Assembly (NCBI RefSeq): GCF_963921235.1
Contig: NC_086108.1
Span: 4,340,001 to 4,404,000, forward strand
Source: Mobula hypostoma
Lineage: Eukaryota
DNA: 64,000 nucleotides
Direction: 5' to 3'
In this document: piece by piece, positions 2,853 to 33,900 of the stretch
Numbering within the stretch: position 1 is the stretch's first letter
Layout: each line of letters begins with the position of its first letter
The notes under the pieces: generated by a model
The model's input: only the letters and a program-made list of their open reading frames with translations
Databases searched by the model: none
What the model was told of the DNA's origin: nothing
Position numbers and translations under genes: made by a program

Positions 2853-3007
2853 CCAATTGTCAGAGAATTCAGTTTAATTCAAAGTATTGTAAAAATTGAT
2901 GCCTTAATGGTTAATTAAAGTATAGCTGACCATAGAGAAAAAAAAACTCAGAGGTAATGGAGCGAGTCAAGAACGCGACTTCACTCCATGAGCGCTACCG
3001 GAAGTCC

Positions 3008-3489
3008 CAATCCCTTTAGGATCTTATACGTTTCAATCAGATCCCCCCTCAATCTGCTAAATTCCAATGAGTACAAGCCCAGTTCATCCAGTCTTTCTTC
3101 ATATGAAAGTCCTGCCATCCCAGGAATCAATCTGGTGAACCTTCTTTGTACTCCCTCTGTGGCAAGGATGTCTTTCCCCAGATTAGGGGACCAAAACTGC
3201 ACACAATACTCCAGGTGTGGTCTCACCAAGGCCTTGTACAACTGCAGTAGTACCTCCCTGCTCCTGTACTCGAATCCTCTCGCTATAAATGCCAGCATAC
3301 CATTCGCCTTTTTCACCGCCTGCTGCACCTGCATGCCCACTTTCAATGACTGGTGTATAATGACACCCAGGTCTCGTTGCACCTCCCCTTTTCCTAATCG
3401 GCCACCATTCAGATAATAATCTGTTTTCCTATTTTTGCCACCAAAGTGGATAACTTCACATTTATCCACATTAAATTGCATCTGCCATG
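3008..3489 (-). mobile_element. CR1 LINE fragment (RT C-terminal region) interrupted by the L1
   Basis: Encodes [38 protein letters not shown] and is nearly identical to 42352-42834. Confidence 0.9.
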
Positions 3490-3636
3490 TTTGCTGGTCT
3501 CCACTAGAGTCCTTCTTGCTAAAGGCAGTGGATTTTTAAAGATTTACTGGGCATCTCTAGAGAGATCTCTCACTAACAGCCACTGGACTCAGAGTGGGAA
3601 ATCACCTTTCTCAGACTCCGTATGTCTAGGGTAGAT

Positions 3637-7369: not shown

Positions 7370-8169
7370 ATCCATTATTCATTCTATTTTCATGACAGAT
7401 GCTGGTGATAATAAACCAGATTCTGATTCTGGGTCTCTTGTTTCGAAGAAGTCTGTGACAAGTAAGAATGTATGACGCATACCTTCTCTGATAAAATTGA
7501 ACCATTTTATTTGCATAAATATCATGTGACAGGAAGTTGTTCCAACTCCATACCACATGACAGGAATTTCTACAAGCCTAACCAGGGAGTGTACCATAAT
7601 TTGGTGTTCCATAGGGTTTAACACTGACAAATTCCCACGCATGGACTGAACTGTCCTTGTAATCCAAAAGCTTGTCCAGATTCTCGAAGCAAAGGGGATA
7701 ACTTCACTTGCCCCATCATTGAAAAGTTCCCACAACCTATGGACTCACTTTCAAGGATTCTTCATCTCATGTTCCTGATATTTATTGTTTATTTTCGTAT
7801 GGACTTGCATCACGGTCTCTTTGGGGGCATTACTGTTGGGTGGGTGGTGAGGAGGGAGGTTTCATGCTTTTTTGCTGAGGTAGGTGGGGGAGGGTTGATG
7901 CTTGTGTGTGGAGGGCCAGGGTGGTTTGGGGGTTCTAACATTTTTCGTGAATTGTTTCTTTGAGGTTTGTTTCTGTTTTGTGGATGTCTGTGAATTTCTG
8001 GTTCTATACATTCTCTGATATTAAATTGAATCTTTGAACTATTGAACTTTTATTTATTTATTAATATAATTTCTTTCTTTTTGTATTCGCACAGCTTGTT
8101 ATCTTCTGCACTCTGGCTGAGTGCCCAAGTAGGCGCGATCTTTCATTGATTCTGTTACAGTTATTATAT

Positions 8170-8607
8170 AGAAACATAGAAAACCTATGGTACAATATAA
8201 GCACTTTGGGCCACAATGCTGTGCCAAACATGTACTTACTTTAGAAATTACGTAGGGTTACACATAGCCCTCTATTTTTCTAATCTCTTAAAAGACCCTA
8301 TCATATCTGCCTCCACCACCGTTGCTGGCAGCCCATTCCATACATTCACCACTCTCTGCATAAAAAACTTACCCCTGACATCTCCTCTGTACCTACTTCC
8401 AAGCACCTTAAACCTGTGCCCTCTCGTGTTAGCCATTTCAGCCCTGGGAAAAAGCCCCTGACTATCCACAAGATCAATGCCTCTCATCATCTTATATACC
8501 TCTATCAGGTCACCTCTCATCCTCTGTCGCTCAAAGGAGAAAAGGCCGAGTTCACCCAACCCATTCTCATAAGGCTTGCTTCCCAATCCAGGCAACATCC
8601 TTGTAAA
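8170..8607 (-). mobile_element. CR1 3' end (inverted continuation of 5620-7077)
   Basis: Encodes [37 protein letters not shown], with an ATAGAAAC tail at ~8170-8185. Confidence 0.85.
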
Positions 8608-9690
8608 GCAACACACATCAAAGTTGCTGGTGAACGCAGCAGGCCAGGCAGCATCTCTAGGAAGAGGTACAGTCGACGTTTCAGGCCGAGACCCTTCGTC
8701 AGGACTAACTGAAGGAAGAGCTAGTAAGAGATTTGAAAGTGGGAGGGGGAGGGGAGATCCAAAATGATAGGAGAAGACAGGAGGGGGAGGATGGAGCCAA
8801 GAGCTGGACAGGTGATTGGCAAAAGGGATATGAGAGGATCATGGGACAGGAGGTCCGGGAAGAAAGACGGGGGGGGGGAACTCAGAGGATGGGCAAGGGG
8901 TATAGTCAGAGGGACAGAGGGAGAAAAAGGAGAGTGAGAGAAAGAATGTGTGTATAAAAATAAATAACGGATGGGGTACGAGGGGGAGGTGGGGCACCAG
9001 CGGAAGTTTGAGAAGTTAATGTTCATGCCATCAGGTTGGAGGCTACCCAGACGGAATACAAGGTGTTGTTCCTCCAACCTGAGTGTGGCTTCATCTTTAC
9101 AGTAGAGGAGGCTGTGGACAAACACATCAGAATGGGAATGGGACACGGAACCAAAATGTGCGGCCATTTCTGATGTGTCTGTCCACGGCCTCCTCTGCTG
9201 TAGAGATGGGGCCACACTCAGGTTGGAGGAACAACACCTTATATTCCTTCTGGGTAGCCTCCAACCTGATGGCATGAATATCGACTTCTCTAACTTCCGC
9301 TAATGCCCCACCTCCCCCTCGTACCCCATCTGTTATTTATTTATATACATCCATTCTTTCTCTCACTCTCTTTTTTCTCCCTCTGTCCCTCTGACTATAC
9401 CCCTTGCCCATCCTCTGGTTCCGCCCCCCCCTTGTCTTTCTCCCCAGACCTCCTGTCCCATGATCCTCTCATATCCCCTTTGCCTATCACCTGTCCAGCT
9501 CTTGGCTCCATCCCTCCCCCTCCTGTCTTCTCCTATCATTTCGGATCTCCCCCTCCCCCTTTCAAATCTCTTACTAGCTCTTCCTTCAGTTAATCCCGAC
9601 AAAGGGTCCCGGCCCGAAACGTCAACTGTACCTCTTCCTAGAGATGCTGCCTGGCCTGCTGCGTTCACCAGCAACTTTGATGTGTGCTGT
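8608..9690. mobile_element. Penelope-like element as an inverted pair (~520-bp arms)
   Basis: Arms ~8612-9132 and ~9168-9686 are reverse complements. Both carry RLEEQHL.FRLGSLQPDGMNI.FSNF and a hammerhead-type motif. Confidence 0.8.
8671..8705 (-). ncRNA. Minimal type I hammerhead ribozyme motif (Penelope terminal repeat)
   Basis: AGTC-CTGACGA-AGGGTCTCGGCCT-GAAAC-GTC-GACT: intact core, stem I AGTC/GACT and a GUC triplet. Confidence 0.7.
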
Positions 9691-10337
9691 TTGAATAATG
9701 GATATTAGCATTACACAATTTTTTTTGTGTTATCTGTATACTTAGTCAACCCCAGTTCCCTGAATTTGTGCTAACAGAACATGAGAGATTCGGTAGATGC
9801 TGGAAATCCAGAGCAACGTGCACAAGATGCTGTAGGAACTCAGCAGGTCAGGCAGCATCGATGGGGAGGAAATAACAGTTGACGTTTTAGGCCGAGACCC
9901 TTCATCAGCGCTCATGCTGTGACAAACATTTCTACAGGTGTAGTGTCTATATAAATCAGACAATCACTTTCCAACCCACTTGTGTCACTCGAGTGGCTCC
10001 CCTCAGCCCTTTCTTCCAGTAGGGAGTAGTCATTGTTAAATCATCCGCTTCCTGTGCTTGCAACTTGTGAAATTCCAACTGAAGTGGCTTATTTGTGATA
10101 TTATTTTCTGTATTTACATTTTTAACATGTTTATTGATGTATGCTTTTTTTTGAAAATTATTCAGCATTTAATGTATGTTTTTGACCTGAATAAAAATGT
10201 AGATGGGTGGGTTAGTAAATTTGCAGATGATACCAAGAATTGGTGGAGTTGTGGATAGTGTAGAAGACTAACAAGGAATACAGCACGATGTAGATCAAAG
10301 ATTCAAAGATCAAAGCACATTTATCAACGAATGTATA

Positions 10338-12580: not shown

Positions 12581-13456
12581 GAGTGGAATTAGGCCATCCT
12601 ACTTATCGAGTCTGCTCCACCATTCCATCATGGCTGATTTACTATCCCTCTCAACCCCCATTCTCCTGCCTTCTCCCTGTAACCTTTGACACCCTCAGTA
12701 ATCAAGACCCTACCAACCTCCACCTTACACCTACCCAATGACCTGCCCTGCACAGATATCTGCAGCAACAAATTCCACAGATTCACCAGACTCTGGGGGA
12801 AGGAATTCCTCCTCATCCCCAGTCTAAAAGGATGCCCCTCTCTTCTGGAGCTCTGTTCTCTGGTCCTAGACTCACCACCATGGGAAACATCCACTCCATC
12901 TAGGCTTTTCAACATTTGGCAGGTTTCCATGAAATTACCCCCCCTCATTTTTCTAAACACCAGTGAGTGAGGGCCCAGATCCATCAAATGCTCCTCTTAT
13001 TTTAACACTTTCATTCCCAGGATCATTCTCAAGAACTTCTTCTGGACCCTTTCCAAGTATATTTAGGTTTGTTTGGAGAATGAACAGGTACAAGGCATCT
13101 GCAACTTCCATTGTTTGTGGGAAGTCAGTAACAATATCCCTCTGGGATAAAGAGGACTTTGAGTCCTGAACATTGACTGGAGGTCACAGTGTCACACAGC
13201 ACAGAAACATGTCCTTCAGCCCAGCTCGCCGATGCCTCCTCACGTTCTCTGCATTATTTATTTAGTTACTTATTTATTTGCACAGCTTGTCTTCTTTCAC
13301 ACATTGGTTATTTGTCAGTCTTTGTTTGGAAAAGTCCTTCCCCATTGAGCACATTTACAAGGACTGCTGTCACAAGAAAACAGCATCCATCATCTAAGAA
13401 CCTCACCATCCAGACCATACTCTCTTCTTGCTGCTGCCATCAGGCAGGAGGTACAG

Positions 13457-15159
13457 GACCCTCAGGTCCCACACCACCAGGTTCAGGAACAGTTATTACC
13501 CCACAACCATCAGACTCCTGAACCACTGTGGATAACTTCACTCACCACAATGAGCCTCAGGTCCCACACCACCAGGTTCAGGAACAGTTATTACCCCACA
13601 ACCATCAGGCTCCTGAACCAGTGTGGATAACTTCACTCACCACAATGAGCCTCAGGTCCCACACCACCAGGTTCAGGAACAGTTATTACCCCACAACCAT
13701 CAGACTCCTGAACCAGTGTGGATAACTTCACTCACCACAATGAGCCTCAGGTCCCACACCACCAGGTTCAGGAACAGTTATTACCCCACAACCATCAGGC
13801 TCCTGAACCAGTGTGGATAACTTCACTCACCACAATGAGCCTCAGGTCCCACACCACCAGGTTCAGGAACAGTTATTACCCCACAACCATCAGACTCCTG
13901 AACCACTGTGGATAACTTCACTCACCACAATGAGCCTCAGGTCCCACACCACCAGGTTCAGGAACAGTTATTACCCCACAACCATCAGGCTCCTGAACCA
14001 GTGTGGATAACTTCACTCACCACAATGAGCCTCAGGTCCCACACCACCAGGTTCAGGAACAGTTATTACCCCACAACCATCAGACTCCTGAACCAGTGTG
14101 GATAACTTCACTCACCACAATGAGCCTCAGGTCCCACACCACCAGGTTCAGGAACAGTTATTACCCCACAACCATCAGGCTCCTGAACCAGTGTGGATAA
14201 CTTCACTCACCACAATGAGCCTCAGGTCCCACACCACCAGGTTCAGGAACAGTTATTACCCCACAACCATCAGGCTCCTGAACCAGTGTGGATAACTTCA
14301 CTCACCACAATGAGCCTCAGGTCCCACACCACCAGGTTCAGGAACAGTTATTACCCCACAACCATCAGGCTCCTGAACCAGTGTGGATAACTTCACTCAC
14401 CACAATGAGCCTCAGGTCCCACACCACCAGGTTCAGGAACAGTTATTACCCCACAACCATCAGACTCCTGAACCACTGTGGATAACTTCACTCACCACAA
14501 TGAGCCTCAGGTCCCACACCACCAGGTTCAGGAACAGTTATTACCCCACAACCATCAGGCTCCTGAACCAGTGTGGATAACTTCACTCACCACAATGAGC
14601 CTCAGGTCCCACACCACCAGGTTCAGGAACAGTTATTACCCCACAACCATCAGGCTCCTGAACCAGTGTGGATAACTTCACTCACCACAATGAGCCTCAG
14701 GTCCCACACCACCAGGTTCAGGAACAGTTATTACCCCACAACCATCAGACTCCTGAACCAGTGTGGATAACTTCACTCACCACAATGAGCCTCAGGTCCC
14801 ACACCACCAGGTTCAGGAACAGTTATTACCCCACAACCATCAGGCTCCTGAACCAGTGTGGATAACTTCACTCACCACAATGAGCCTCAGGTCCCACACC
14901 ACCAGGTTCAGGAACAGTTATTACCCCACAACCATCAGACTCCTGAACCACTGTGGATAACTTCACTCACCACAATGAGCCTCAGGTCCCACACCACCAG
15001 GTTCAGGAACAGTTATTACCCCACAACCATCAGGCTCCTGAACCAGTGTGGATAACTTCACTCACCACAATGAGCCTCAGGTCCCACACCACCAGGTTCA
15101 GGAACAGTTATTATCCCACAACCATCAGGCTCCTGAACCAGTGTGGACATCTTCACTCA
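13457..15159 (+). repeat. 95-bp tandem array (~18 copies) inside a Rex1/Babar 3' fragment
   Basis: Unit GAGCCTCAGGTCCCACACCACCAGGTTCAGGAACAGTTATTACCCCACAACCATCAGGCTCCTGAACCAGTGTGGATAACTTCACTCACCACAAT, which translates as [21 protein letters not shown] (Rex/Babar ORF C-terminus). Confidence 0.97.
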
Positions 15160-15308
15160 TCTCAACTCTGAAATGATTCTACAACTTACGGACTCAGTTT
15201 TAAGGAATCTGCAACTTATGTTCTCAATATTATCTTTGAACTTTGCAACGAGGTGAACCATCCAAGCCAGTAGTGCTTGCTTGTGTTTTGGTCCGTATAT
15301 TCCTAAAC

Positions 15309-15380
15309 CAGACGTCCCCAACTGTTTTTATGCCATAGACCAATACCATTAAGCAAGGGGTCTGAGGTTGGGAACCTCTG
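15309..15380. mobile_element. Short hAT-type MITE remnant
   Basis: Terminal inverted repeats CAGACGTCCCCAAC / GTTGGGAACCTCTG; a related remnant lies at ~52350-52412. Confidence 0.5.
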
Positions 15381-18048
15381 CTCTGAATCTTTCCTGTTCA
15401 ATTGCTGTTGGAAAGCAGTTCAGGCCTACCTCAACCACTGCCTCACAGCTTGTTCCATATGCGGACCACCCTCTGGGTGAAGTAGTCGCCCTGCAGATGC
15501 CTTCTAAATCTCTCCCCTCGCAGCTGACGTTTACTCCATCTGGTTTTGTTTCCATTTTGCTGGAGAAAAAGAATGTGTATTCACCCTGTCCAAGAGTCAC
15601 ACGATTTTATACACCCTCAGATCACCCAGTCTCCAACACTCCAAGGAGTGCCTGCCCAACCTCTCCCTTATAAGACCACAAGGGATATGAGCTACTTAGG
15701 CCATTTCGACCATCGAGTTTGCTCCAGTATTCCATCACAGCAAATTTATTATCCCTCTCAACGCCATTCTCGTCTTCTCCCCCTAACCTATTCAATCTTT
15801 CCTTATAACTCAGGTCCTCCAGTCCCAGCAACAACCTTGTAAATTTTCTCTGTAGTCTGTCAACCTTATTTATATCTTTCCTGCAGGTTGTTGTTCCTTT
15901 CCACACCTTGTGGCACATCAGGTGGAAACTTACCGTTTCCTTTAGCATGTGGATTTTTTTTTACAAGGCCGAGCTGCTACCTCAATGCACAACCCAGCAC
16001 GGATGAGAGTGTATAACACACACAAAATGCTGGAGGAACTCAGCAGGCCAGGCAGCATCTATGGGAAAAAGTAGTCGACGTTTCGGGCCGAGACCCTTCT
16101 GTCCTGGCCTGCCGAGTTCCTCCAGCATTTTGTGTGCGTTGCTTGGATTTCCAGCATCTGCAGATTTTCTCTTTGTGAACAGATGAAAGCATGCAAGGAG
16201 CCGGCCAGATTCGAACCTAGAACCACAACTCGAAGTCTGGTGAGGATGCCACTACACCACTGGCTGGCTAATTCCTGTAGGTAGGTGACCAAACCTGCAC
16301 ACAATACACCAAATTAGGCCTCACCAATATCTTATACAACTTCAACATAACACCTCAAGTCCTGTACTCAATACTTTGATTTCTGAAGGCCAATGTGCCA
16401 AAAGCTTTATTTATGACCCTATCTACCTGTGCTGCCACTTTCAATTAATTATAGACCTGTAATTCCAGATCTCTCTGCTCTACCACATTCCTCAGTGCCC
16501 TACCCCTCACTGTGTAAGACCTGCCCTGGCTAGTCCTACCAAAGTGCAACTCCTTGTGCTCGTCTGCATTAAATTCCTTCTGCCATTTCTCAGCCTATTT
16601 TTCCCAGTTGGTCCAGATCCTTCTGCCACTCTGATAGCCTTCTTCACTGTCCACTAGACCCCTAGACTCCTTATCTTGGGTGTCATTCACAAATTTGCTG
16701 ATCCAGTTTACCACATTATCACCCAGATCATTGATAAGAGATAGAAAACAACAACAGACCCAAAAACAAATTAGACAATAACAGGCAGCGATATCAAATC
16801 TTATTCTGATTCGATGGACGGTGAGATGGTAGAGGGATAAGCACACTCATGCCATTGGGCTGTAGACTAGAAGATCAGCACCTATCAGATTCCCATCTAT
16901 CACCTCCCAGCTTCTTACTTCATCCCCCCTCCCAAACCCACCCACCTATCACCTGCCAACGTGTTCTCCTCCTACTTCCCCCCACCTTCTTATCCAAGCA
17001 TCTTCCTCCTTCCTTTCCAGTCCTGAAGGGTCTCACTTCAAAACATCGACTATTTCTTTCCATAGATATTGCCTGACCTGCTGAGTTCCTCCAGTGCTGT
17101 GTGTGTATTGCTCTGCCTTTCAAAACCCACCAGAGGAAAAGCAGGGAGTGCTGGATTGACCATTTCCCACTCCGCTCTAGACCCTCCATCTCTGTCCAAT
17201 CGGACTACAGGCGACTCCTGGCCCTCTCTTGCATGGGGTGACCCAGAGAGCAGTAACCTCATTTTCCTCCCATTCATTTTCTGGTCTACCCCCTCAGGTA
17301 CAAAAGCTCGGGACCAGGTCCCACCAGGCTCAGACAGTCTCTACCCCATGCTTGAACATACCTCTTGTACAATAAAGATGAATTTTTGATCTCCCAATGA
17401 ATCTCGTTGTGTTTTGTCCACCTGTACTATACCTTCTATTACTGTATCATAATCTTCCACAGGATTGCACCGAAAAAACATGCCAGAGGAACTCAGCAAG
17501 TTAGGCAGTTTCTGTAAGGAAATGAACAGTCAACATCTTGGGTCGAGACCTTTCATCAGGACAATATATTCTGCATTCCTGCTCATAAATCAGTCCTGAT
17601 GAAGGGACTCCGCTCAAAAGACTGGCCGTTTATTTCCCTGACGTGCTGAGTTCCTGTGAGTGTGAGTGATGCTCTGGATTTCCAGCATCTGCAAAATCTC
17701 GTGTTCACTATATTCCGAATCATGGTTTCCCTCAACGGCCTTGTACGTGGGAACGATCTGTCCGCGTGGCCAACGAAAGATTTTCACCGTATCTCAGCAC
17801 GTGACAATAATGAACCAATTTCAGTATAACACCAATAATCCAGCACCTGCAGGACTGGCAGATTTTTATGAATGTTATTTCTAATAAACACCAACACACT
17901 TTGATTTCACAATAAACATGATAGCAGTATAATACATCTTTCAGTGAACCCAGAGTGTTTAAAGAGAGTGGGGAAAAAAGACCCAGAGGGTTCCAGCTTG
18001 TCAAATCCACCAGAAACTTGTAAGCATACTGCCCTGGCTCACAATCCA

Positions 18049-18400
18049 GTTCAGAGTCCAGATCTCTGCCCACCATCCAGATCCGAGATCACAATCTGGA
18101 CCAATTTGCTGGCGCAGGGTCTAAATTCCTGTTTATAATCCAGATCCGGGACTACGGGCCTAGTAACTGGTTCAGAGTCCAGATTCCCCCTCATAATCCA
18201 GATTGGGATCACGATCTGGACCAAGTCGCTGGTGTGGAGTCCGGATCCCTGTTCGCCATCCCGATCTGGGAATCCAGACCAAGTCGCTGGTGCGGAATCT
18301 GGATCCCTGTTCACCATCCCAATCTGGGAATCCAGACCAAGTCCCTGGTGCAGAGCCCGAATCCTGCTCACAGCCCAGATGCCAGACCAAAATCCAGACT
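18049..18400. repeat. Degenerate ~58-62-bp tandem repeats in the presumptive 3'UTR of the ZFYVE1-like gene
   Basis: GATCCCTGTTC.CCATCCC.ATCTGGGAATCCAGACCAAGTC occurs at 18244 and 18302; TTCAGAGTCCAGAT occurs at ~18050 and ~18171. Confidence 0.65.
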
Positions 18401-18712
18401 CTGGCTCCAATCCTTTTCCGCCTGTTTATACAAGAATGCGCCTGCTCATGCTCCAGATTAACGAGCGAGTCCTGTGAAGGGTCTTGGGCCGAAACGTCGA
18501 CTGTTCACTCCCCTCCATGGATGCTGCCTGACCTACTGTGTTCCTCCAGCATTGCGCTAGTGAGCGAAGCACAGGGTATTCCCAACAATCAGACGCCAGG
18601 GTAGCAAAGTATCACCTGCAGGGACCCCGGGATCGCTCCCGAGTCTCATCCTGCGAGGTGGGAGGGGTCACAGGTTCACTCGCGTCCACTCCTACACACC
18701 CCCACCCCGGGT

Positions 18713-18945
18713 TCACAGATCCCCTTTCTTCTGGCTGCAGTCCACGCACACCCGCACAGGATGATCCCAGCCCCGGGAGGGGACGGTCCGCAGGCCGGGG
18801 GAGCAGGGGCCGCAGAAGCCTCGACCGCAGGCCCGGCAGTGGTGACGGGAGGTGGTGCCGGTGAAGGCCTTCCCGCAGCGGTGGCACCCGGCGAGCTGGT
18901 CGTCGGGCACCCAGTAATCCGGCCTGGCCACATCCTTAACCAGCC
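18713..18945 (-). CDS. ZFYVE1: ZFYVE1-like exon 11, FYVE domain 2 and stop
   Basis: Acceptor TTTTGCAG. Encodes [23 protein letters not shown]...[16 protein letters not shown]...[20 protein letters not shown]. Confidence 0.95.
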
Positions 18946-21900
18946 CTGCAAAACAGAAATGCCAATAGGTAGTCACCTGATGTTTGCACAGGGGGGGGGG
19001 GCTCCATGGAGACCCCTTTCACCCTCCCCTATCATAGAAACCATAGAAACTACAGCACAGAAACAGGCCTCTTGGCCCTTCTTGGCTGTGCTGAACCATT
19101 TTCTGCCTAGTCCCACTGACCTGCACACGGACCATATCCCTCCATACACCTCCCATCCATGTATCTGTCCAGTTTATTCTTAAATGTTAAAAAACAACCC
19201 GCATTTACCACCTCGCCTGGCAGCTCATTCCATACTCCCACCACTCTCTGTGTGAAGAAGCCCCCCCTAATGTTCCCTTTAAACTTTTCCCCCCTCACCC
19301 TTAACCCATGTCCTCTGGTTTTTTTCTCCCCTTGCCTCAGTGGAAAAAGCCTGCTTGCATTCACTCTATCTATACCCATCATAATTTTATATACCTCTAT
19401 CAAATCTCCCCTCATTCTTCTACGCTCCAGGGAATAAAGTCCTAACCTATTCAACCTTTCTCTGTAACTGAGTTTCTCAAGTCCCGGCAACATCCTTGTA
19501 AACCTTCTCTGCACTCTTTCAACCTTATTTATATCCTTCCTGTAATTTGGTGACCAAAACTGAACACAATACTCCAGATTCGGCCTCACCAATGCCTTAT
19601 ACAACCTCATCATAACATTCCAGCTCTTATACTCAATACTTTGATTAATAAAGGTCAATGTACCAAAAGCTCTCTTTACAACCCCATCTACTTGTGACAC
19701 CACTTTTAGGGAATTTTGTATCTGTATTCCCAGATCCCTCTGTTCTACTGCACTCCTCAGTGCCTTACCATTAACCCTATATGTTCTACCTTGGTTTGTC
19801 CTTCCAACGTGCAATACCTCACACTTGTCTGTATTAATCTCCATCTGCCATTTTTCAGCCCATTTTTCCAGCTGGTACAAGTCCCTCTGCAGGCTCTGAA
19901 AACCTTCCTCACTGTCTACTACACCTCCAATCTTTGTATCATCAGCAAATTTGCTGATCCAATTTACCACATTATCATCCAGATCATTGATATAGATGAC
20001 AAATAACAATGGACCCAGCACTGATCCCTGTGGCACACCACTAGTCACAGGCCTCCACTCAGAGAAGCAATTCTCTACCACCACTCTCTGGCTTCTTCCA
20101 TCGAGCCAATGTCTAATCCAATTTACCACCTCTCCATGTATACCTAGCGACTGAATTTTCCTAACTAACCTCCCATGCGGGACCTTGTCAAAGGCCTTAC
20201 TGAAATCCACGTAGACAATATCCACTGCCTTCCCTTCATCCACTTTCCTGGTAACCTCCTCAAAAAACTCCAACAGATTGGTCAAACATGACCTACCACG
20301 CACAAAGCCATGTTGACTCTCCCTAATAAGTCCCTGTCTATCCAAATGCTTGTAGATTCTGTCTCTTAGTACTCCCTCCAATAACTTACCTACCACTGAC
20401 GTTAAACTTACCGGCCTATAATTTCCCAGATTACTTTTCGATCCTTTTTTAAACAACGGAACAACATGAGCCACTCTCCAATCCTCCGGCACTTCACCCG
20501 TAGACAGCGACATTTTAAATATTTCTGCCAGGGCCCCCGCAATTTCAACACTAGTCTCCTTCAAGGTCCAAGGGAACACTCTGTCAGGTCCCGGGGATTT
20601 ATCCACTTTAATTTTCCTCAAGACAGCAAGCACCTCCTCCTTTTCAATCTGTACAGTTTCCATGATCTCACTACTTGATTCCCTCAATTCCATAGACTTC
20701 ATGCCAGTTTCCTTAGTAAATACAGACGCAAAAAACCTATTTAAGATCTCCCCCATTTCCTTTAGTTCCGCACATAGCCGACCACTCTGATCTTCAAGAG
20801 GACCAATTTTATCCCTTACAATCCTTTTGCTCGTAATATACCTGTAAAAGCTCTTTGGATTATCCTTCACTTCGACTGCCAAGGCAACCTCATGTCTTCT
20901 TTTAGCCCTCCTGATTTCTTTCTTAAGTATTTTCTTGCACTTCTTATACTCCTCAAAGACCTGATTTACCCCCTGTTTCCTATACATTTCATACAACTCC
21001 CTCTTCTTCTTTATCAGAGTTGCAATATCGCTTGAGAACCAAGGTTCCTTATTCCTATTCAATTTGCCTTTAATCCAGACAGGAACATACAAACTCTGCA
21101 CTCTTAAAATTTCACCTTTGAAGGCTTCCCACCTACCAATCACATCTTTGCCAGAGAACAACCTGTCCCAATCCACGCTTTTTAGATCCTTTCTCATTTC
21201 TTCAAATTTGGCCTTCTTCCAGTTCAGAACCTCAACCCTAGGACCAGATCTATCCTTGTCCATGATCAAATTGAAACTAATGGTGTTATGATCACTGGAA
21301 CCAAAGTGCTCCCCTACACAGACTTCTGCCACTTGTCCTAACTCATTTCCTAACAGGAGATCCAATATTGCATCCCCTCTAGTTGGTCCCTCTATATATA
21401 TATTTAGAAAACTTTCCTGAACACATTTTACAAACTCTAAACCATTTAGACCCCTAACAGTATGGGAGTCCCAATCAATGTATGGAAAATTAAAATCCCC
21501 TACCACCACAACTTTATGTTTCCTGCAGTTGCCTGCTATCTCTCTGTAGATTTGCTCTTCCAATTCTCCTTGACTATTGGGTTTGCCCGCTAGAAGGATA
21601 CCTACCAACAGAAGGCATTGGCAGATCCTGCCCTAGGCATGAAAAGTTCAGAGACCACACAAAGGATAGTGAAAATTCACTGGTATCTCTCATCCCCACG
21701 ATTTGTGACATTTACTGGGAGTGTAAACTCCTGGATGTTAATATTTCAGAGGGCATGTCCTGGGCCCGGCAGGAAAGTGTGACTGCAAAAAAATCACGGC
21801 AGTGCCTCTACTTCCCTTGGAGTCTGCAGAGATTTGGCTGACATCTGAAACTTTGACAAACTTCTGTACATGTGTAGTGGAGAGTGTACTGACTGAGTGT

Positions 21901-24900
21901 ATGGAGACACCAATGCCCTTGTATAGAAAAGCTACAAAAAGTAGTGGATACAGCCCAGTCCATCACGGGTAAAGCCCTCCCCACCATTGATTACATCGAC
22001 ACTGTTGTTGGAAAGTAGCATCCATCATCAGTAACCCCCCACCACCCAAGACATGCTCTCTTTTAGCTACTGCCATTAGGTAGAAGGTACAGGGGCCTCA
22101 GGTCCCACACCACCAGGTTCAGGAACAGTTATTACCCTACAACCATCAGGCGCCTGAACCAGTGTGGATAACTTCACTCACCACAATGAGCCTCAGGTCC
22201 CACACCACCAGGTTCAGGAACAGTTATTACCCCACAACCATCAGGCTCCTGAACCAGTGTGGATAACTTCACTCACCACAATGAGCCTCAGGTCCCACAC
22301 CACCAGGTTCAGGAACAGTTATTACCCCACAACCATCAGGCTCCTGAACCAGTGTGGATAACTTCACTCACCACAATGAGCCTCAGGTCCCACACCAGCA
22401 GGTTCAGGGACAGTTATTACCCCACGACCATCAGGCTCCTGAACCAGTGTGGATAACTTCACTCACCACAATGAGCCTCAGGTCCCACACCACCAGGTTC
22501 AGGAACAGTTATTACCCCACGACCATCAGGCTCCTGAACCAGTGTGAATAACTTCACTCACCACAATGAGCCTCAGGTCCCACACCACCAGGTTCAGGAA
22601 CAGTTATTACCCCTCAACCATCAGGCTGTTGAACCCAGGGGATAACTTCACTCACCCCATCATTGAAATGTTCCCACATCCTATGGGCTCACTTTCAAGG
22701 ACTCTTCATCTCATGTTCTCGATATTTATTGTTTATTTATTGATTATTATTATTTGTTTATTTTTGTATTTGCACAGTTGTCTTCTGCACACTGATTGAA
22801 CACCCAAATTGGTGCGGTCTCTCATTGGTCCTTTTATAGTTAATATTCTATAGATTTGCTGAGTATGCCCTAAAGAAAATTAATCTCCAGGTTGTATATG
22901 CTGACATATATGTACTCTGATAATAAATCTCCAGGTTGTATATGCTGACATGTATGTACTCTGATATGAACTTTGTCTTCAGAATCAGGTTCATTATCAC
23001 TGACACGTCATGAAATTTGTTGTTTAACGGCAGCAGTTCAGTGCAAGGGGTGTACGAGGTGTCCAGGGAGGGGCAGCACCTCTAGTTAAACGGCTTGTCA
23101 TGTCCATCCCAGGGTAGCTCACTCACCCTTTGGCCCCCACTGGACACTCTGCTCTCACCTGTGGCTCCAAGTAACTGACCTCATGTGGCAGCAGCCACAC
23201 CCCAGTACACCACTTCAACAGGCTGGCTAAAGCAGGCAAGGGTAGCCAGCAGCCTCATACCCTGGTGAGAGAGACAGGCCTGTCCTAGTTTGCAAAGTCA
23301 GCTCCAGCAGATCTACAGTGAGATCCAACACCCAGGAAGGTGATACTGTAACGCTCGCTGGAGAATGAAGGGCATGACAAGGCACAGACGGTCATCCACT
23401 GCAACCAAGGAAGACCCCAGTCTGTGACGCTTGTTCATACCACTGGACCCCGACTTCTGAGATAAAGAAAGCAGAAATGCCCCAGTGCAACATCTTTTCT
23501 ACTTTAAAAACTCTCCTGCACTGGTCTCCTGTCATTGTCAGACAAAACGGACACCCACCAACCAGTGCAAAACATAAAAAGTCTCTGAGAATCAGAACCT
23601 GGTTTAGGATCACTGACGTAAATCTTGAAATTTAGAACATGGAGCACAGAAAATCACAGCACATCTACTCAAGAAAGCAACATCCGTGATGAAGGACCCC
23701 CACCACCCAGACCATGTTCACTTCTCACTGCTGCCATCGGGCAGGAGGTACAGAAGCCTCAGGTCCCACACCACCAGGTTCAGGAACAGTTATTACCCCA
23801 CAACCATCAGACTCCGGAACCAGTGTGGATAACTTCACTCACCACAATGAGCCTCAGGTCCCACACCACCAGGTTCAGGAACAGTTATTACCCCACAACC
23901 ATCAGGCTCCTGAACCAGTGTGGATAACTTCACTCACCACAATGAGCCTCAGGTCCCACACCACCAGGTTCAGGAACAGTTATTACCCCACAACCATCAG
24001 GCTCCTGAACCAGTGTGGAAAACTTCACTCACCACAATGAGCCTCAGGTCCCACACCACCAGGTTCAGGAACAGTTATTACCCCACAACCATCAGGCTCC
24101 TGAACCAGTGTGGATAACTTCACTCACCACAATGAGCCTCAGGTCCCACACCACCAGGTTCAGGAACAGTTATTACCCCTCAACCATCAGGCTCCTGAAC
24201 CAGTGTGGATAACTTCACTCACCACAATGAGCCTCAGGTCCCACACCACCAGGTTCAGGAACAGTTATTACCCCTCAACCATCAGGCTCCTGAACCAGTG
24301 TGGAAAACTTCACTCACCACAATGAGCCTCAGGTCCCACACCACCAGGTTCAGGAACAGTTATTACCCCTCAACCATCAGGCTCCTGAACCAGTGTGGAT
24401 AACTTCACTCACCACAATGAGCCTCAGGTCCCACACCACCAGGTTCAGGAACAGTTATTACCCCACAACCATCAGGCTCCTGAACCAGTGTGGATAACTT
24501 CACTCACCACAATGAGCCTCAGGTCCCACACCACCAGGTTCAGGAACAGTTATTACCCCACAACCATCAGGCTCCTGAACCAGTGTGGATAACTTCACTC
24601 ACCACAATGAGCCTCAGGTCCCACACCACCAGGTTCAGGAACAGTTATTACCCCACAACCATCAGGCTCCTGAACCAGGGTGGATAACTTCACTCACCAC
24701 AATGAGCCTCAGGTCCCACACCACCAGGTTCAGGAACAGTTATTACCCCACAACCATCAGGCTCCTGAACCAGTGTGGATAACTTCACTGAACTTCATTT
24801 GCCCCATCATTGAAATGTTCCCACAACCAAAGGACTCACTTTCAAGGACTCTTCATCACATGTGCTCAATATTTATTGCATATTTATTATGATTATTTAT

Positions 24901-27900
24901 TTCTTTTTCTATTTGCAGTTTTTTGGCCCACTGGTTGAATGCCCAGTTACTGGAGACTTTCTTTGATCCTGTTACAGTTTAGTATTCTGTGGATTTATTG
25001 AGAATGCCCACAAGAAAACGAATCTCAGGGTTGTAGATGGTGACACTTATGTAGTTTGACCATAAGTTCACTTTGAACTTTGAGCGTTGTAGATAAAGAT
25101 CGTGAGGCATTGTCGGGGACCTCTTACCACCCGTCCCACAATCTCTCTGACTCACTACCGTCAGGAAACAGGCCTGCGCTGCACAAACGACACACATCTT
25201 GTATTATACTTGAGTAACTTATGTGTGGTAATATTTTGCTTGATGTGCCGTATGTGACAGATGCTTTGTGGGTACACTGTGGTGCAGAGGAACATTCAAT
25301 TGGTTGTATATATGTACAGTCAGATTACAATGACATTGAGACAGCAGGCGCGGTTGTCAGAGGCCTCTGCACTCGAGCGGCCTCTCTCTTTCGATGGTGA
25401 GTGAGAGTCTGTTGGTTCAGAGTCGGGGGAACTCGAATAAGTGATGCTGCAGACTGTAACATCAGAACAGAGAGCTGTTGGCCTCACCCCCCAATGTGGC
25501 AGGAGGGATATCTCTCTCTCCCTCGCTAGTGAGAGAGCGGGCCTGTCTGAGATATTAGGATGGACAGTAGCTTTTGATGGACTCTAGATTGTGGTCTCTG
25601 TGGGCTTTGCCATTGCTCGGGGGTGGGGTTTGGTGCTAATGCAGAAGAAAATTGGGGAGGGGGAGAGGGAGGGTTGATGATTTGGCTATTTGGCTGCTGC
25701 TTGTGCATGGGGGAGGGGGCTTTGGAGTTTGAATGCTTCATTTTTTGGATTTTGTTTTCTGTTTGGTGGATGTCTGTGAAGAATAAGAATTCCAGGTTGT
25801 ATACATTCTCTGATTATTAACTTGAACTTGGAGGTCAAGTCTCAGGAGGAGGCGTGTGGCAATCCCCACTCTATCCCCCCCCCCGCCAATCAACAGAGCA
25901 TCGCAGCTCACAGAGAATCCCACTCACTCCCCAACGCTGGCCGAACGAGGCTCAGTCCTTCTGGCAGGATCCAGAAAGAGTTCCTCTGCTGGCTGACCGA
26001 TCCCTGGCCGAGAGATGTGGCTGCCTCACAGACCCAGGCCTGGAGAAGCCCTGGATTCATCCCCAACCCCCGTGCCAGCCGCAGTGGGGGGAATGCCAAT
26101 CCAAGCCCTTGCTGTCAGGGGCAGCTCTAAGGGAGGGGGTGACTGTGCCAGCGGCTGGGTGGCAACAGGGTCTGAGCAGAGGGTGAAGGCGACGTGCCGA
26201 GGCTGGGCTGACCCAGGCAGGACGTAAAGCACAAGAGGTTCTGCAGACGTTGGAAATATCGAGCAACACACACAGAACGCCAGAGGAACAGAGTGGAGTC
26301 AGTCCACCCGGCCCCTCGAGCCATGCTGTCCCAGCAACTCACAGCCCCGATTAACCCTAACCTAACTACGGGACAACTGACAACGACCAGTTAACCCGGT
26401 ACTGTACGCCTTTGGACTGTAGGAAACCCGGATCAAACCCTTGAATTGATGGGGGGGTGGGGGGACACAGAACTCCAAGCTCTGGAATGCCCCGAGCAGT
26501 ACTAGCATCTCACTTATGTGGCCTCCTGATGGCGAGGTACACAAGGGAGGTGATGGGTAGGCGAGAAGGGGGCCCCTCTCTCCCTCTGTTCCCTCCTCCT
26601 TCCCTGTCTCCCATAGTCTACTCCAGCCCTTTACCCCTTCCACCCATCACCTCCCAGCTTCTCACTTCCCTCCCCCTCACCTGCCAGCTTCTCACTTCAT
26701 TCCCCAGTCCCCCAGCCACCCCTCACCTCCCAGCTTCTCACTTCCCTCCCCCTCACTCACCTCCCAGCCTGTACTCTTCCCCCTCCCCTCCCACCAGCTT
26801 ATTCTGCCTTCTCACATCAAAGTTGCTGGTGAACGCAGCAGGCCAGGCAGCATCTCCAGGAAGAGGTACAGTTGACGTTTCGGGCTGAGACCCTTCGTCA
26901 GGACTAACTGAAGGAAAAGCTAGTAAGAGGTTTGAAAGGATCCCCCTCCCCCTCCCACTTTCAAATCTCTTACTAGCTCTTCCTTCAGTTAGTCCTGACG
27001 AAGGGTCTCAGCCCAAAATAACATCTCTTTATTCCCCTCTGTAGATCCAGCATTCAGTGCGTGTGTTGTTCAAGTAAACAGTGCCACGGAAAACCAACAG
27101 GCCAACCAAACTGGGCCCAGGAGAGTGGGGGGAGCAGTTGACACTGGGGGGGGGTGGGGGAAGAGGCCACCACACATACATACCAAGGGGATAATTGACG
27201 GCTGAAGACATCACCTCCAGGGTGCTCTGGGCCATCTCCGTGATCCTGCGTGCCAGTAATCCGCTATCGGCCGTGGGCGGCACCTTCCCTGTGGAGAGGG
27301 AGAACCAGGTCAAAGAGAGCGGCGGGGAATGGTCTGACGTCAGACTGGACCCCACACGGTGCACCCACCTCCCAGTCTGCATTCCCACCCACCCCCCCCC
27401 CCCGTTTTCTCACTATGACCATCAGGAAGGAGCTGCAGGAGCCTCAGGTCCCACACCACCAGGTTCAGGAACAGTTATTACCCCACAACCATCAGGCTCC
27501 TGAACCAGTGTGGATAACTTCACTCACCACAATGAGCCTCAGGTCCCACACCACCAGATTCAGGAACAGTTATTACCCCACAACCATCAGGCTCCTGAAC
27601 CAGTGTGGATAACTTCACTCACCACAACTCTGAACTGATTCCACAACCTATGGACTCCCTTTCAAGGACTCTACAACTCATGTTCTCGGTATTATTTAAT
27701 TTTTTAAAAAATTATTTGGATGACTTGCCCTCTTTTGCACACTGGTTTTTCATCAATTCTATTGTAATTTTTTATTTTTCGGTAAAATGTCAAAGATATT
27801 CAAAAGTTTGACGGGTCTCTCTCTCCCCCCTCACTCACTGCTGCTGGAGTCTTGCGTCTTGTTCAAGGTTTAATTGATGCAGTTTGTGGATTGGACTCGT

Positions 27901-30900
27901 GGTTTATGTTTAGGTGTTTCTCTTCCTTCTTTTAAAAATATTTTTTCTATTTTGTACTATTTTTAATCTATTTAATATACTTGCTGTAATTGATTTATTT
28001 AATTCTATATTATCATGTATTGCATTGAACTTTTGCTGCTAAGTTAACAAATTTCATGGCACATGCCGGTGATAATAAAGCTGATTCTGATTATTGCTAT
28101 TTTGATTGGGGTGGACTGTCTCTGCGGCCTGCAGTCGATGAACAACACAGTGATAAACTGAACTGAACTGAACATTCCTAGACTGTCTTACGGACTTCGT
28201 GTTTTGATGTTTTGTGATTTTCATTCTTTATTTGCTGATTGTGTGACTTGCTTTTTTTGCGTGAGGGATGTTTGATGGTTTCTTTGAACGGGTTCCACTG
28301 TGTTACTTTGTTTTGTGACTGTCTTGGGGGGGGGGAAGGCGAATCTCAGGGTGGTATTCATACTGATAATAAATGTACTTTGAAAATACATCTCAGGGTT
28401 GTATATGACTCACATGCTTCGATAATGATTTTACTTCGAAAATCTCCCATTAGGAACTACCTTTGCTGCCTGAATCTCCTGCGACAGGAGAGAAGCCTTT
28501 TCTCGCTTCCAAGTAGCTGAGAGAACTGCCGCTCAGACAGCTGACTGTGGTCGGGAGTTTCTCAATGAATTCAGATCAATTAATATGATCAATGGAAGCA
28601 CTTAGAAAGCAGCTCAGGCCATCAGTTAAGTTTTTAACCAGTGCAGGAACAAGGTCCCGTCTGTCACTTTGTGTGGAGTATGTGATTTATGCTCAGGAGC
28701 TGTCAGATGTTCAAGGCCAAGATCAACTGTGCAGAGGTCAAGTCCAGTTAGTGACCAACAACCCCATTGGTGACCTTAACAGGACCATAGATGCAGGAGT
28801 AGGGGTTAGGTCATTCAGTCCATCAAGTCTGCTCTGCCATTCTATCATGGCTGATTTATTTTCCCTCTCAAAGTGCAAAGTAAATTTATTATCAAAGTAC
28901 ATATAGGTCACCATATACAACTGAGATTCATTCATATGTAGTATGCAACCCTGAGATTTGTCTTCCCCACAGACAACCACGAGACAAAAGAACACCAAGG
29001 AATCTGTTCAAAGAAAAACATCAAACCCACCAACCACCAGCCCCCCCCCCAAAAAAACACAAACTAAAAAAACGAGCGAAAACGCAGGATATAAAAAACA
29101 AAATCGAAATCCAGGCATATTCAGTTCAGCTCAGTGTTCTTTATCTGCAGTCCACACTGATCAAACAAAAATCACACAAAATAACTAAAAAGAAAGGAGT
29201 GACCGGGGGGGGGGGGGGGACAATGGTGGTGAGAGGAAAAAAACAGAGACAGCCACACATAAACGCCTCCCCCCCCCCGCCCTTCAGCAGCAGTGAGTGA
29301 GAGGCTGGTAGGCAGCACTGAACACTCACTCGCCTCGATGACTTCAATCTTCATCAGCGCTTTAATTGGTGAGAAATGGAGTCGATCATGCCCTGTCTCC
29401 AGGCTTCTTGGCCTCAAGGCCCCACACTTTGCTCGAAACCTCACCAGACACCATCGGAGACCCAAAAGTGCCAGATCACTCAATCGGCCTTTGAACCTTT
29501 GAAAGCAAGTCCGTTGGTTGTGCGAACATTTCAATGATGAGGCAAGTGAAATAAAACCTATTCTCCTGCCTCCTCTCATATGCATTGATGCCCTTACTAA
29601 TCCAGAACTTATCAACCCCATTGACAGCCATCTGTGACGATAAATTCCATAGATCCGTCACCCTCTGGCTCAAGAAATTCCTAATTTCTGTCCTATGTGG
29701 ACATTCCTCTATCCTGAGGCTGTGCCCTCTGGTCCTAGACTTCCCCCACCATAGGGAACATCCTCTCCACATCCACTCTGTCTAGGCCTTTCAACATTCA
29801 ATAGCTTTCAATGACACCCCCCCCCACACTACTACTACGACGTTGACTCAGGCCTAGAGGGCTGGCGTCAGGCACGATGACGGACTCTCCACTTCTCCCT
29901 CTCCCGTGTGTTCAGTTCATCTACATTAGCCACGCCACTGTCTTCTAGGAGCATGTTGACCATAGTCTTGGGAGGACACCCCCCCCACCCTTCTTCTAAA
30001 CTCCAGTGAGTACAGGCCCACAGCCTTCAAATGCTCCTCACGCATTAACCCTTTCATTGCCGGGACCACAGACGCAGCCTGACCTGCAGCGTTCTGTATG
30101 CAGAGACCAACCCTGACCCTTCACCGGCACCGCTGAGGCTCCAGGTGTTGGAACTTGCCTCTGGTCCCTGCCCTGCCACGCGGATGTTACCTGCGCCATC
30201 ACCCCTGGCTCTGAAGCAGCTGTCGCAGACGCGGACAGCAGCCGTGCCCCAGCCGCGCTCCGGCACGGGCATGCTCTCGCTGGAGCAGGAGTCGCAGCAG
30301 CCTTCCCCGCATGCCCGGCAGTGATGTTTCTGCTCCCCGGGTCCGAACGCCTTCCCACAATGGTGGCATTCCTGCGGTGAAAACCGGGAGAGGTGGGGCT
30401 TCTGTTAGTGGGTAGTCACTGAGGTCCCCAGATCTGCCCGCCTGCCCGCGGTCCGTGGGAGGGAGGAGTGAGGCGTTAGAGGAGCGATCTGGGGGAGGCC
30501 ATCCAGCCCATCGAGTTCATACTAGACAAGAGCGCCAATGGAGCGAACATCACCCATCGCCTGTCCTAGTCCAATTATGAAAACACCATGTGACAATAAC
30601 TTTTCCATTTAACCAAATTTACCAAACTAAAAGTGCCAGTTCTTCCTCCACGTTCTTCAGGGATCAGATATAGAACAGTACAGCACGGGCCCTTCGGCCC
30701 ACAATGTTAACCTACCCCAAGATCAATCTAACTCTTCCCTCTTACATAGCGCTCAGTTTTTCTATCACCCTTGGGCCAAAAAAACCACCTCCCCTGGTTT
30801 CAGGCACCACCACCCTCTTGTAGAAAACTTAGCCCTGACATCCACCCACCCCTACATCTCCTTTGGGGCCGCACGGTAACGTAGTAGTTTACACGACGCT

Positions 30901-33900
30901 TTACAGTGCAGGTGACACGTGCTGACTGTAAGGAGTTTGCACGTTTTCCCGTGACAGCGTGGGTTTCCGCCGGGTGCTCCAGTTTCCTCCCACAGTCCAA
31001 AGACGTACCGGTTGGTAGGTCATTGTAAACTGTCCTGTTTAAACCGGGGGTGGGGGGAGGCCCAGGAGCCGGGAGCTTGAAGGTACGTATTCAACATTTC
31101 AGGTTCAGCTTCCTCCCCTCCACTATCGGATTCCTGAACAGACGGTGAACCAATCCACGATGACGAATGAAGTCACTGCGAGCCTAAGAGTCTATTAAAA
31201 TGTCCCTCACGTACCTGCCTCTACCACCACACCTGGCAGTGTGGTCCACACACCCACCACTCCGGGTGTAAAAACCTACCTCTGACATCTTCCCCCCCCC
31301 CGGCAGTGTGGTCCACACACCCACCACTCCGGGTGTAAAAACCTACCTCTGACATCTTCCCCCCCCCCCCCGGCAGTGTGGTCCACACACCCACCACTCC
31401 GGGTGTAAAAACCTACCTCTGACATCTTCCCCCCCCCCGGCAGTGTGGTCCACACACCCACCATTCCGGGTGTAAAAACCTACCTCTGACATCTTCCCCC
31501 CACCAATCATCTTAAAATCACTACCATTACGTGCCACGTGGGCGATTAAGGTCTTCCCCAGAAGTCTCTGGCTACCCACGTGATCTATGCAGGTATATCC
31601 AATAAAGTTGCCACTGGGTGCAAGTTTTAAATTGTACCTGCAGGAGAGGGAAGGAGGCAGGGCGGGGATATTGTACCTGCAGGAGAGGGAAGGAGGCAGG
31701 GCGGGGATATTGTACCTGCAGGAGAGGGAAGGAGGCTGCACGGGGATATTGTACCTGCAGGAGAGGGAAGGAGGCAGGGCGGGGATATTGTACCTGCAGG
31801 AGAGGGAAGGAGGCTGCACGGGGATATTGTACCTGCAGGAGAGGGAAGGAGGCAGCACGGGGACATTGTACCTGCAGGAGAGGGAAGGAGGCAGCACGGG
31901 GACATTGTACCTGCAGGAGAGGGAAGGAGGCAGGGCGGGGACATTGTACCTGCAGGAGAGGGAAGGAGGCAGGGCGGGGAGGGAGAAGCATCTCGGACAC
32001 TGGAGCACCGGAGTGGGACTTGAACCCTTCACCTCGGGTCTCCAGGACTATCCTCACACCCCCTCCCACCTCTCCGCCCAGCTGGGGAGGGGCCGCACGC
32101 ACTGGACTCACTGTGATCTGGGAATTTGGGATCCAGTAGTCCGGGGCGACGTGGTCAGTCAGCCAGGCCGTAAGCGCCCGCGTGGGGCCACTGCTGTATT
32201 CGCCAACAGATTGGATCACATTGCACACGCTGTCCAGCACCCGCCGAGCTCCATTACTGCTCCCCCTCAGCCACGACTCACACTGCAAGACACAAGGACA
32301 GACACCCGCATTGGTGTGGAGGCTTGTGCAGTCTCAGACCCATAGCAATTCAAAATTTATCATCAAAGGACTCAGTGGCCACTTTATTAGGCACACCTGC
32401 TCGTTAATGCAAATATCTAATCAGCCAATCACATGACAGCAACTCAATGCATAAAAGCATGCAGACATGGTCAAGAGGTTCAGACCAAATATCAGAGTTG
32501 GGGTAGAAATGTGATCCAAGTGATTCTAACTGTGGAATGATTGTTGGTGCCAGACAGGGTGGTTTGAGTATCTCAGAAACTGCTGACCACCTGGGGGGGG
32601 GGCAGATAGAGTGGGGGAAGGGGGCAGAAAGTCCCTGCTTTATCTTTATTCCCCCCCCCCGCCGGAATATTTGCCCCCAGCCTCAGCTCTCGCAGAGCTC
32701 AGGGACACTATCCTCCCCAGCATCCAGGGCATCTTCAAGGAGTGATGCCCTAAGGCGGCGATGCCCATCATGAAGGACCCCCCCCCAATCGCCCAGGACA
32801 TGCCCTCTTCTCATTGTTACCATCAGGGAGGAGGTACAGGAGCCTGAAGACACACACTCAGTGATTCAGGAACAGCTTCTTCCCCTCTGCCATCTGATTT
32901 CTGAATGGACACTGAACCTGTGAACACTACCTCACTTCGTTGTTTTATTATGTATTGTGTACAGTTCTGGTCACCGAATTACAGGAAAGATGTCAATAAA
33001 ATTGAGAGAGTACAGAGGAGATTTACTAGAATGTTGCCTGGGTTTCATCTCCTAAATTACAGAGAAAGGTTGAACAAGTTGGGTCTTTATTCTTTGGAGC
33101 GTAGAAGGTTGAGGGGGGGACTTGATAGAGGTGTTTAAAATTATGAGGGGAATTGACAGAGTTGACGTGGATAGGCTTTTTCCACTGAGAGTGGGGGAGA
33201 TTCAAACAAGAGGACATGAGTTGAGAGTTAAAGGGCAAAAGTTTAGGGGTAACATGAGGGGGAACTTCTTTACTCAGAGAGTGGTAGCTGTGTGGAACGA
33301 GCTTCCAGCAGAAATGGTTGAGGCAGGTTCGATGTTGTCGTTTAAAGTTAAATTGGATAGCTATATGGACAGGAAAGGAATGGAGGGTTATGGGCTGAGT
33401 GCAGGTCGGTGGGACTAGGTGAGAGTAAGAGTTCGGCATGGACTAGAAGGGCTGAATGGCCTGTTTCTGTGCTGTAATTGTTATATGGTTATATTGTTAT
33501 TACAATGCACTGCTGCCACATAACAGCAAACGTCACGACATAAGCCAGTGATATTAAACCCAATTCTGATTTGCATACTTCGATAATATATTTGCTTTAA
33601 GCCTTGAATACTTGTGCGCCTGGTGGTAAGCACAACTTAGACCTTCAGTTCTGAGACCGCAAGGCAATGGAACCGCACTCTGCAGTGAGGCACTGGACTC
33701 ACCCCCAGCCACACGTGCCTCAGCTCAGCACGTACCACCGAGCCCTCCGGGTCTTGGTTCCCAATCCAGTACTGCCGACTGCGATAGATAATCCCACAGT
33801 TTGGACATTCCAGCACGTACCTATGCAGAGACAGAATACTCTGTGTTGTCACGGTGTTCCTTATATTCTTCTTCAGATTTATTTATTTACTTATCAAATG

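Follow-up and report, generated by a model that had tools for sequence, protein, structure and literature searches.

The window, a 64,000-nucleotide stretch of the Mobula hypostoma contig NC_086108.1, contains a gene on the minus strand, taken here to be ZFYVE1/DFCP1-like, that includes one GBP-like NTPase exon along with two FYVE exons. Four arrays of one 95-bp tandem repeat, each inside a LINE remnant (its host), lie in and behind this gene. Three exons of the gene join in frame via canonical splice sites. The last coding exon (18713-18945, minus strand), encoding a FYVE domain, is single copy and located between arrays 1 and 2. A 105-bp in-frame exon with canonical splice sites (27184-27288, minus strand), also single copy, separates arrays 3 and 4, and the other FYVE exon (30191-30371, minus strand) lies upstream of the intron containing array 4. 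Array 1 is found approximately 3.5 kb past the stop codon, arrays 2 and 3 are both within the last intron, and array 4 is 150 bp from a splice acceptor. The gaps between the arrays are 1.1, 2.7 and 6.9 kb.

All four arrays are on the plus strand. Array 1 (13457-15165) consists of 18 units of 95 bp in host 1 (about 13344-15233), array 2 (22095-22659) of 6 units in host 2 (about 21725-22975), array 3 (23755-24789) of 11 units in host 3 (about 23656-25085) and array 4 (27439-27628) of 2 units in the strongly 5'-truncated host 4 (about 27404-27717). TRF delimits the arrays at 13460-15159, 22095-22656, 23755-24789 and 27439-27627, with respective copy numbers of 17.9, 5.9, 10.9 and 2.0. Adjacent units meet at an identical junction, the first instance being 13543-13562 (plus strand). 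Searching the window for the junction 20-mer with 3 mismatches allowed yielded 33 occurrences (17, 5, 10 and 1 in arrays 1 to 4), all of which were exact, with 0.01 expected by chance. The 33 complete units depart from their consensus at 26 of 3135 bases (0.83%), and 17 of them, present in all four arrays, are identical to it. This confirms that the four plus-strand arrays with a near-identical unit, as described by a first-pass annotation, are real.

The unit corresponds to the last ~25 codons of the LINE ORF2, the stop codon and a few bases of the 3' UTR, and there is no microhomology at the 95-bp junction. A coding role for the arrays was rejected, as every frame cycle of the unit, on either strand, is interrupted by stops. 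Elsewhere in the window unit-like sequence is weak, the best matches being 41 bp long (73-76% identity), 20 bp (90%) and 18 bp (exact), and each of the four remnants in the window with a near-consensus unit interval bears an array. With a unit derived from a transposable element (TE) and tandem copies at more than one locus, the repeat is a TE-derived multilocus minisatellite. Where a variant is shared between two units, both lie within one array in 32 of 39 pairs, a level reached by 5 of 2000 label shuffles, and a four-unit block occurs repeated in array 1. That the variants are mostly array-private, in addition to the repeated block, indicates real turnover inside the arrays. The 9-bp inverted repeat noted in the first-pass annotation is present at unit positions 21-29 and 57-65 (13575-13619 in one unit, with arms at 13575-13583 and 13611-13619). 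It forms a weak hairpin with modest z-scores (as DNA, -1.55 on the plus and -2.62 on the minus strand; as RNA, -1.94) that belongs to the ordinary LINE segment, and the values do not support a special hairpin.

Translation of all four hosts yields the ORF2 C-terminal residues of LINE proteins with RVT_1 and PF09004 domains. Residues 917-977 of one such protein with both domains (P0017) match all four hosts, with E values of 2e-15 to 7e-6. The family is presumably Rex1/Babar; none of the LINE homologues found is labelled Rex. Hosts 1-3, compared among themselves, have a common 3' UTR and short tail-like repeats. For Rex1/Babar, the accessible part of one source describes a conserved 3' UTR and an end in short oligonucleotide repeats (PMC6274825). 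No paper on DUF1891 was found in the literature searched, which mostly excluded subscription papers. Another LINE remnant in the window shows 89% identity to a Mobula hypostoma protein.

Similarity between hosts is confined to stretches of LINE remnant, 22-265 bp long, beside the arrays, with none beyond. Among the four hosts, the last 36 nt of the upstream flank differ at 57 of 216 pairwise positions (26%) and 60 nt of the downstream flank at 68 of 360 (19%), whereas the first units are identical over their initial 42 nt. Flanks that are 19-26% apart are thus far more diverged than units 0.8% off their consensus, as originally proposed. The two exit types described for arrays 1 and 4 versus arrays 2 and 3 were also recovered: hosts 1 and 4 share one 3' type, hosts 2 and 3 share another, and in the latter pair a host-4-type unit is joined to the different 3' type. 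Truncation points differ between hosts. A further remnant of the host 2/3 type (7696-7794, plus strand) starts no earlier than the final bases of the unit interval and carries no array. The LINE-only similarity, the two 3' types and the single-copy exons between arrays show that the hosts are independent insertions, and the same observations exclude a segmental duplication. An active subfamily carrying an internal repeat, in the manner of SVA or LTR12, was likewise rejected on the basis of the flank divergence and the two 3' types. The diverged flanks, with homology limited to the LINE remnant, support the proposal that the repeat spread into independently inserted old LINE remnants.

The array edges were analysed by counting departures from the four-host majority. 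These number 18 of 132 in the upstream flank and 26 of 240 in the downstream flank, with 0 of 168 in the first units at positions 1-42; a Fisher test of the upstream flank against this unit interval gives P 2e-7. The 5' edge is sharp, with hosts 1-3 each retaining one private base no more than 3 nt from the unit start. The 3' edge is ragged: last units become host-like at position ~74 in host 1 (with one change at 40), 44-58 in host 2, 84 in host 3 and 92 in host 4. Across positions 1-39 of the first and last units there is 1 departure in 156, where 8-18 would be expected had host bases merely been displaced; the 39-bp limit was picked after the data had been seen, and a limit of 57 bp gives 7 departures in 228, P then ranging between 2e-6 and 0.11 depending on the assumed rate (0.11 at 5%). 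Host bases in the unit interval have been replaced, and not only displaced. A sharp-edged tract that is far more alike than its flanks is as expected of a product of non-allelic gene conversion, and so are the unexchanged flanks and independent hosts. First and last units do not jointly retain a full original monomer, as would be looked for following insertion of extrachromosomal circular DNA (eccDNA), a trace that later homogenisation could mask.

A search of sequencing runs with 121 bases around the array 4 junction listed 24 runs, 20 of which hold at least half of 8 sampled words. Contigs of 4 of the 24 listed runs, carrying four organism labels, were compared with 22660-23848, a segment containing a single unit; word shares in the remaining 20 runs do not enter the evidence. 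The 95-bp junction was found in contigs of all four, with depths of 419 in 4 contigs (X1, possibly the source organism), 639 in 8 (X9), 20 in 2 (X15) and 319 in 5 (X6). One X9 contig shows 0 differences to the flank of host 3 over 339 bases (23409-23747, depth 13.7) and ends 10 bp before the array. Scaling by depth gives ~60 junctions in X1 (range 32-79) and ~46 in X9 (39-73), as orders of magnitude only, since contig depth is not true copy number and some joints in X1 went uncounted. By the same measure the family core amounts to ~1.9e5 copies, and junction-bearing copies make up ~1e-4 of family depth. With tens of junctions per genome against ~10^5 family copies, the cluster looks local, and the 33 junctions of the window fit a large share of the genome's total, as suggested by rough depth. 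This is in line with the proposed local clustering (~45-60 junctions versus 33 in the window), with up to half of the junctions possibly outside the window according to the depth ranges.

The X15 run matches neighbouring high-copy repeats approximately a thousandfold less than X1, and its organism therefore seems to be a distant relative. Contamination by organism A was rejected, as it predicts a depth of ~1480 in the repeat bin where 34 was seen; X15 has no cover at 8 of 30 bins, which was not taken as proof of absence. One X15 contig (record 15) runs through 80 unit bases with 2 differences into the junction and 74 bases beyond it. Two positions in this range are privately changed in the reference unit itself, and the X15 unit may hence equal the consensus. 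In X1, a junction variant with CG instead of TG reaches a depth of 115 and is absent from all 33 junctions of the window. In the CG form, the exit base of the host itself is joined cleanly to the start of the unit; this form is probably ancestral, with the junction T arising through CpG decay. X6 holds a 103-bp form, and an extra-C form of the junction likewise occurs among the examined runs. In a comparison with the family majority restricted to contigs of 90% similarity or more, a filter that favours consensus-like copies, position 44 is the single difference of the unit, and position 8 is roughly evenly split. Loose-end consensuses resembling both 3' types are present in contigs of the examined runs. 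No listed contig of the four runs bridges a host flank and its array, and none spans a host's unit interval, so that no repeat-free orthologous host was seen. The junction pattern had 0 matches in metagenome and viral contigs, and the 3'-flank pattern 0 matches in metagenome, viral and prokaryote contigs.

The LINE segment contains many other go-back joints in contigs of the examined runs. When the longest open stretch of the array served as a protein query, 11 NCBI gene models from Hypanus sabinus, Mobula hypostoma and M. birostris were identified. The majority translate a sister repeat at several loci, in which a 70-residue three-frame cycle corresponds to a 70-bp unit. In each of the four hosts a 7-bp motif is repeated at a spacing of exactly 70 bp, which suggests that the 70-bp repeat can arise repeatedly. 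The two repeats have in common tandem amplification of the same ORF2-end segment. They differ in that the sister repeat of Hypanus sabinus and Mobula spp. has other breakpoints, 7-bp microhomology, copies on several scaffolds, an open three-frame cycle and possibly more than one origin. None of the 11 gene models contains both diagnostic words of the 95-bp junction, with an ambiguous 'MSLR' start in 1 of 11, and no homologue of the junction peptide was found at near length; owing to the stops in the 95-bp unit, a protein search is insensitive to this junction. The identical junction in all arrays and its lack of microhomology, together with units that lack the hosts' private bases, argue for the single origin proposed for the unit.

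The explanation we favour, with a probability of roughly 0.6, is that neighbouring homologous remnants received the repeat from an array by non-crossover gene conversion, followed by ordinary array turnover. A crossover between arrays 1 and 2 or 3 and 4 would delete an exon, which favours non-crossovers. The repeat would have started as one 95-bp tandem duplication, a single event in a near-consensus 3' end copy of a very abundant ray LINE family, the clean join probably creating a CpG that later decayed to TpG. A break in the unit interval of a remnant would then be repaired using a nearby array as the template: one end invades from the 3' side, a variable number of units is copied, and the new strand re-anneals. 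The recipient would gain an array, at the cost of its own bases as far as homology reaches. The ragged 3' exits may mark break or priming points; at the sharp 5' edge, homology to an internal donor unit may have run out. Afterwards, slippage or unequal exchange would turn over the units within each array. Pathway, donor and order of events are our inference. The first-pass annotation had copy 4 as the birthplace, which is not borne out: host 4 has the most diverged upstream flank (7 of 33 departures), the unit is close to the family majority, the junction is also present in contigs of other organisms, and the probable ancestral CG form occurs in X1 and in none of the window's 33 junctions. Against conversion, later homogenisation within arrays could erase the trace of another seeding route, and the unit is near-identical in the seemingly distant X15, which neutral concerted evolution explains poorly.

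The annotation had left open spread by conversion or by circles. Its second option, in which unit-multimer circles from an array re-integrate into neighbouring remnants or serve as rolling-circle templates for them and turnover homogenises the ends, is in our view unlikely. It would account for unit numbers ranging from 2 to 18, and circles have been proposed for the spread of Rsp-like satellites in the accessible text of PMC7403614. Single-crossover insertion retains all host bases, in conflict with the paucity of departures at positions 1-39, so that simple re-integration without later homogenisation fits poorly; only in host 2 would a crossover, close to position 43-44, suit the data. A diffusing circle would also meet about 10^5 other targets, yet the arrays are clustered. 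It is improbable that the units descend from an old mobile subfamily with the duplication, or from ancient seeding, and were kept alike by concerted evolution acting on them only. The junction in all four organisms examined, including one whose other repeats match poorly, and the CG, 103-bp and extra-C forms in the same runs speak for such a history. It is at odds with the two 3' types and differing truncation points of the hosts; with junction copies at ~1e-4 of family depth, four independent insertions within 14 kb are improbable, and conversion between arrays would still be required.

An RNA-templated route, with a sense array transcript annealing to a nicked remnant and LINE machinery reverse-transcribing it from variable 3' priming points before a 5' finish by homology, appears still less probable. 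Hosts 1-3, which are all of the informative ones, have their ragged edge towards the 3' end of the element and their sharp edge towards its 5' end, matching the polarity of reverse transcription, and the unit is itself a piece of the LINE 3' end. The same polarity in three of three has P 0.25 by chance, copies should disperse, and the surrounding gene is transcribed from the opposite strand. We regard as very improbable an assembly or polishing artefact that placed copies of one array in similar LINE remnants. The host-array boundaries are those that no listed contig bridges; against an artefact, the variants are array-private, array 1 has its repeated block, the independent sample X9 has the junction at similar multiplicity, and arrays of 0.2-1.7 kb are short relative to long reads. 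Least credible are four independent hot-spot duplications yielding one unit. The segment does duplicate often, as seen from the go-back joints and the sister repeat in three ray species; this junction lacks microhomology, and independent events would copy each host's diverged bases, when the units are 99% alike across two host types.

A broader reading is speculative and we hold it to be rather unlikely. The repeat could be a gene-less, self-propagating minisatellite for which the parent LINE, with its ~10^5 remnants, provides the landing pads, spreading by gain-biased conversion of homologous neighbours, possibly via an RNA template and the LINE reverse transcriptase, and near-unchanged across ray lineages with local flare-ups in each. 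The term 'homing', applied in the first-pass annotation, is a metaphor only and implies no nuclease or drive; the unit is closed by stops throughout.

Most likely, the locus is a neat instance, in a vertebrate, of a process known from satellites of fruit flies. In Drosophila simulans and mauritiana, the Rsp-like satellite spreads into 1.688 clusters, and the available text of Sproul et al. (2020, PMC7403614) proposes interlocus conversion or eccDNA. As far as that text goes, both cases have a rare junction common to several loci, pre-existing homologous repeats as targets, and one fixed and one variable end. In contrast, each landing pad in the ray is one decayed LINE remnant and the satellite derives from this very LINE; the arrays span 14 kb within and behind a single vertebrate gene, and the junction is without microhomology. 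Non-allelic gene conversion between Alu elements acts within ~10 kb and best at high similarity, according to the part consulted of PMC8230782 (citing Aleshin and Zhi 2010). Homogenisation of nearby TE copies is common to both systems, with the ray array gaps inside the ~10 kb range; the Alu events in that source swap bases, whereas the ray tract carries a whole array, adding 95 to 1600 bp. In yeast double-strand-break repair, synthesis through a tandem donor reportedly gave variable unit numbers in the recipient (Paques, Leung and Haber in 1998); that system was reportedly engineered, whereas the ray case involves natural TE remnants. Synthesis-dependent strand annealing (SDSA) can collect sequence from separate donors, as stated in the accessible part of PMC2062477. 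Human TE-derived multilocus minisatellites have been catalogued (see also the review PMC9659126), and 185 of 5,932 clusters are multilocus in Ahmed and Liang (2012, PMC3389668). These are similarly minisatellites born inside TEs, with hot-spot segments; the portions of PMC3389668 available invoke transposition or local expansion, and an identical junction in diverged neighbouring hosts does not feature in them. The literature searched, with incomplete coverage, described neither this repeat nor the transfer of an entire array from one TE remnant to another in a vertebrate.

The locus would thus preserve, with unusual clarity, the natural movement of a tandem repeat between loci without transposition, with independent hosts, a single junction, readable tract edges and exons that forbid crossovers. 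The route by which multilocus minisatellites and satellite seeds spread, be it conversion, circles or RNA, can be tested at this one 14-kb locus using ray assemblies that already exist. TE-age estimates drawn from such segments would be distorted, and in ray annotations the sister 70-bp repeat yields spurious 'mucin-like' gene models.

The region around the arrays of the 95-bp LINE-derived repeat contains a minus-strand gene that we take to be ZFYVE1/DFCP1-like. This gene encodes two FYVE domains as well as a GBP-like NTPase domain, and its exons lie at 47490-48047, 30191-30371, 27184-27288 and 18713-18945. Within the window, its reading frame is continuous across the three 3' exons.

Six further young tandem duplications were found (22878-22966, 31235-31501, 31631-31980, 35384-35500, 49999-50150 and 51678-51729), with matches of 95-100% and periods of 26-73 bp, and the region as a whole is therefore prone to tandem duplication. 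A 32-bp satellite with strong strand skew (~276 copies, 55237-64000) continues past the window end. An inverted duplication of ~1.1 kb at 8606-9692 (centre near 9150), retroposon-like in composition, has arms that are 91-94% complementary, separated by a 35 nt spacer. Its 8614-8760 segment belongs to the same retroposon family as a 61 bp inverted repeat at 26878-27018 (95% complementary, 19 nt spacer). Separately, LINE pieces at 3007-3494 and 42352-42841, 39 kb apart, share 98.2% identity across 490 bp; these are either young copies or the product of another conversion.

The sister 70-bp tandem repeat, derived from the same LINE segment, makes up in translation all or part of the NCBI gene models P0122-P0131 from Hypanus sabinus, Mobula hypostoma and M. 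birostris. These models are named 'mucin-2-like', 'uncharacterized' or UBE2Z isoforms, with the repeat lying inside UBE2Z models of M. hypostoma and M. birostris alike, and are probably annotation artefacts. For the 95-bp repeat, the unit-to-unit junction was ~5x commoner in organism C (sequencing run X6) than in organism A when scaled to the depth of the host LINE family, and a 103-bp form of the unit was found in the same run. The 95-bp repeat may be more amplified in the species of organism C.
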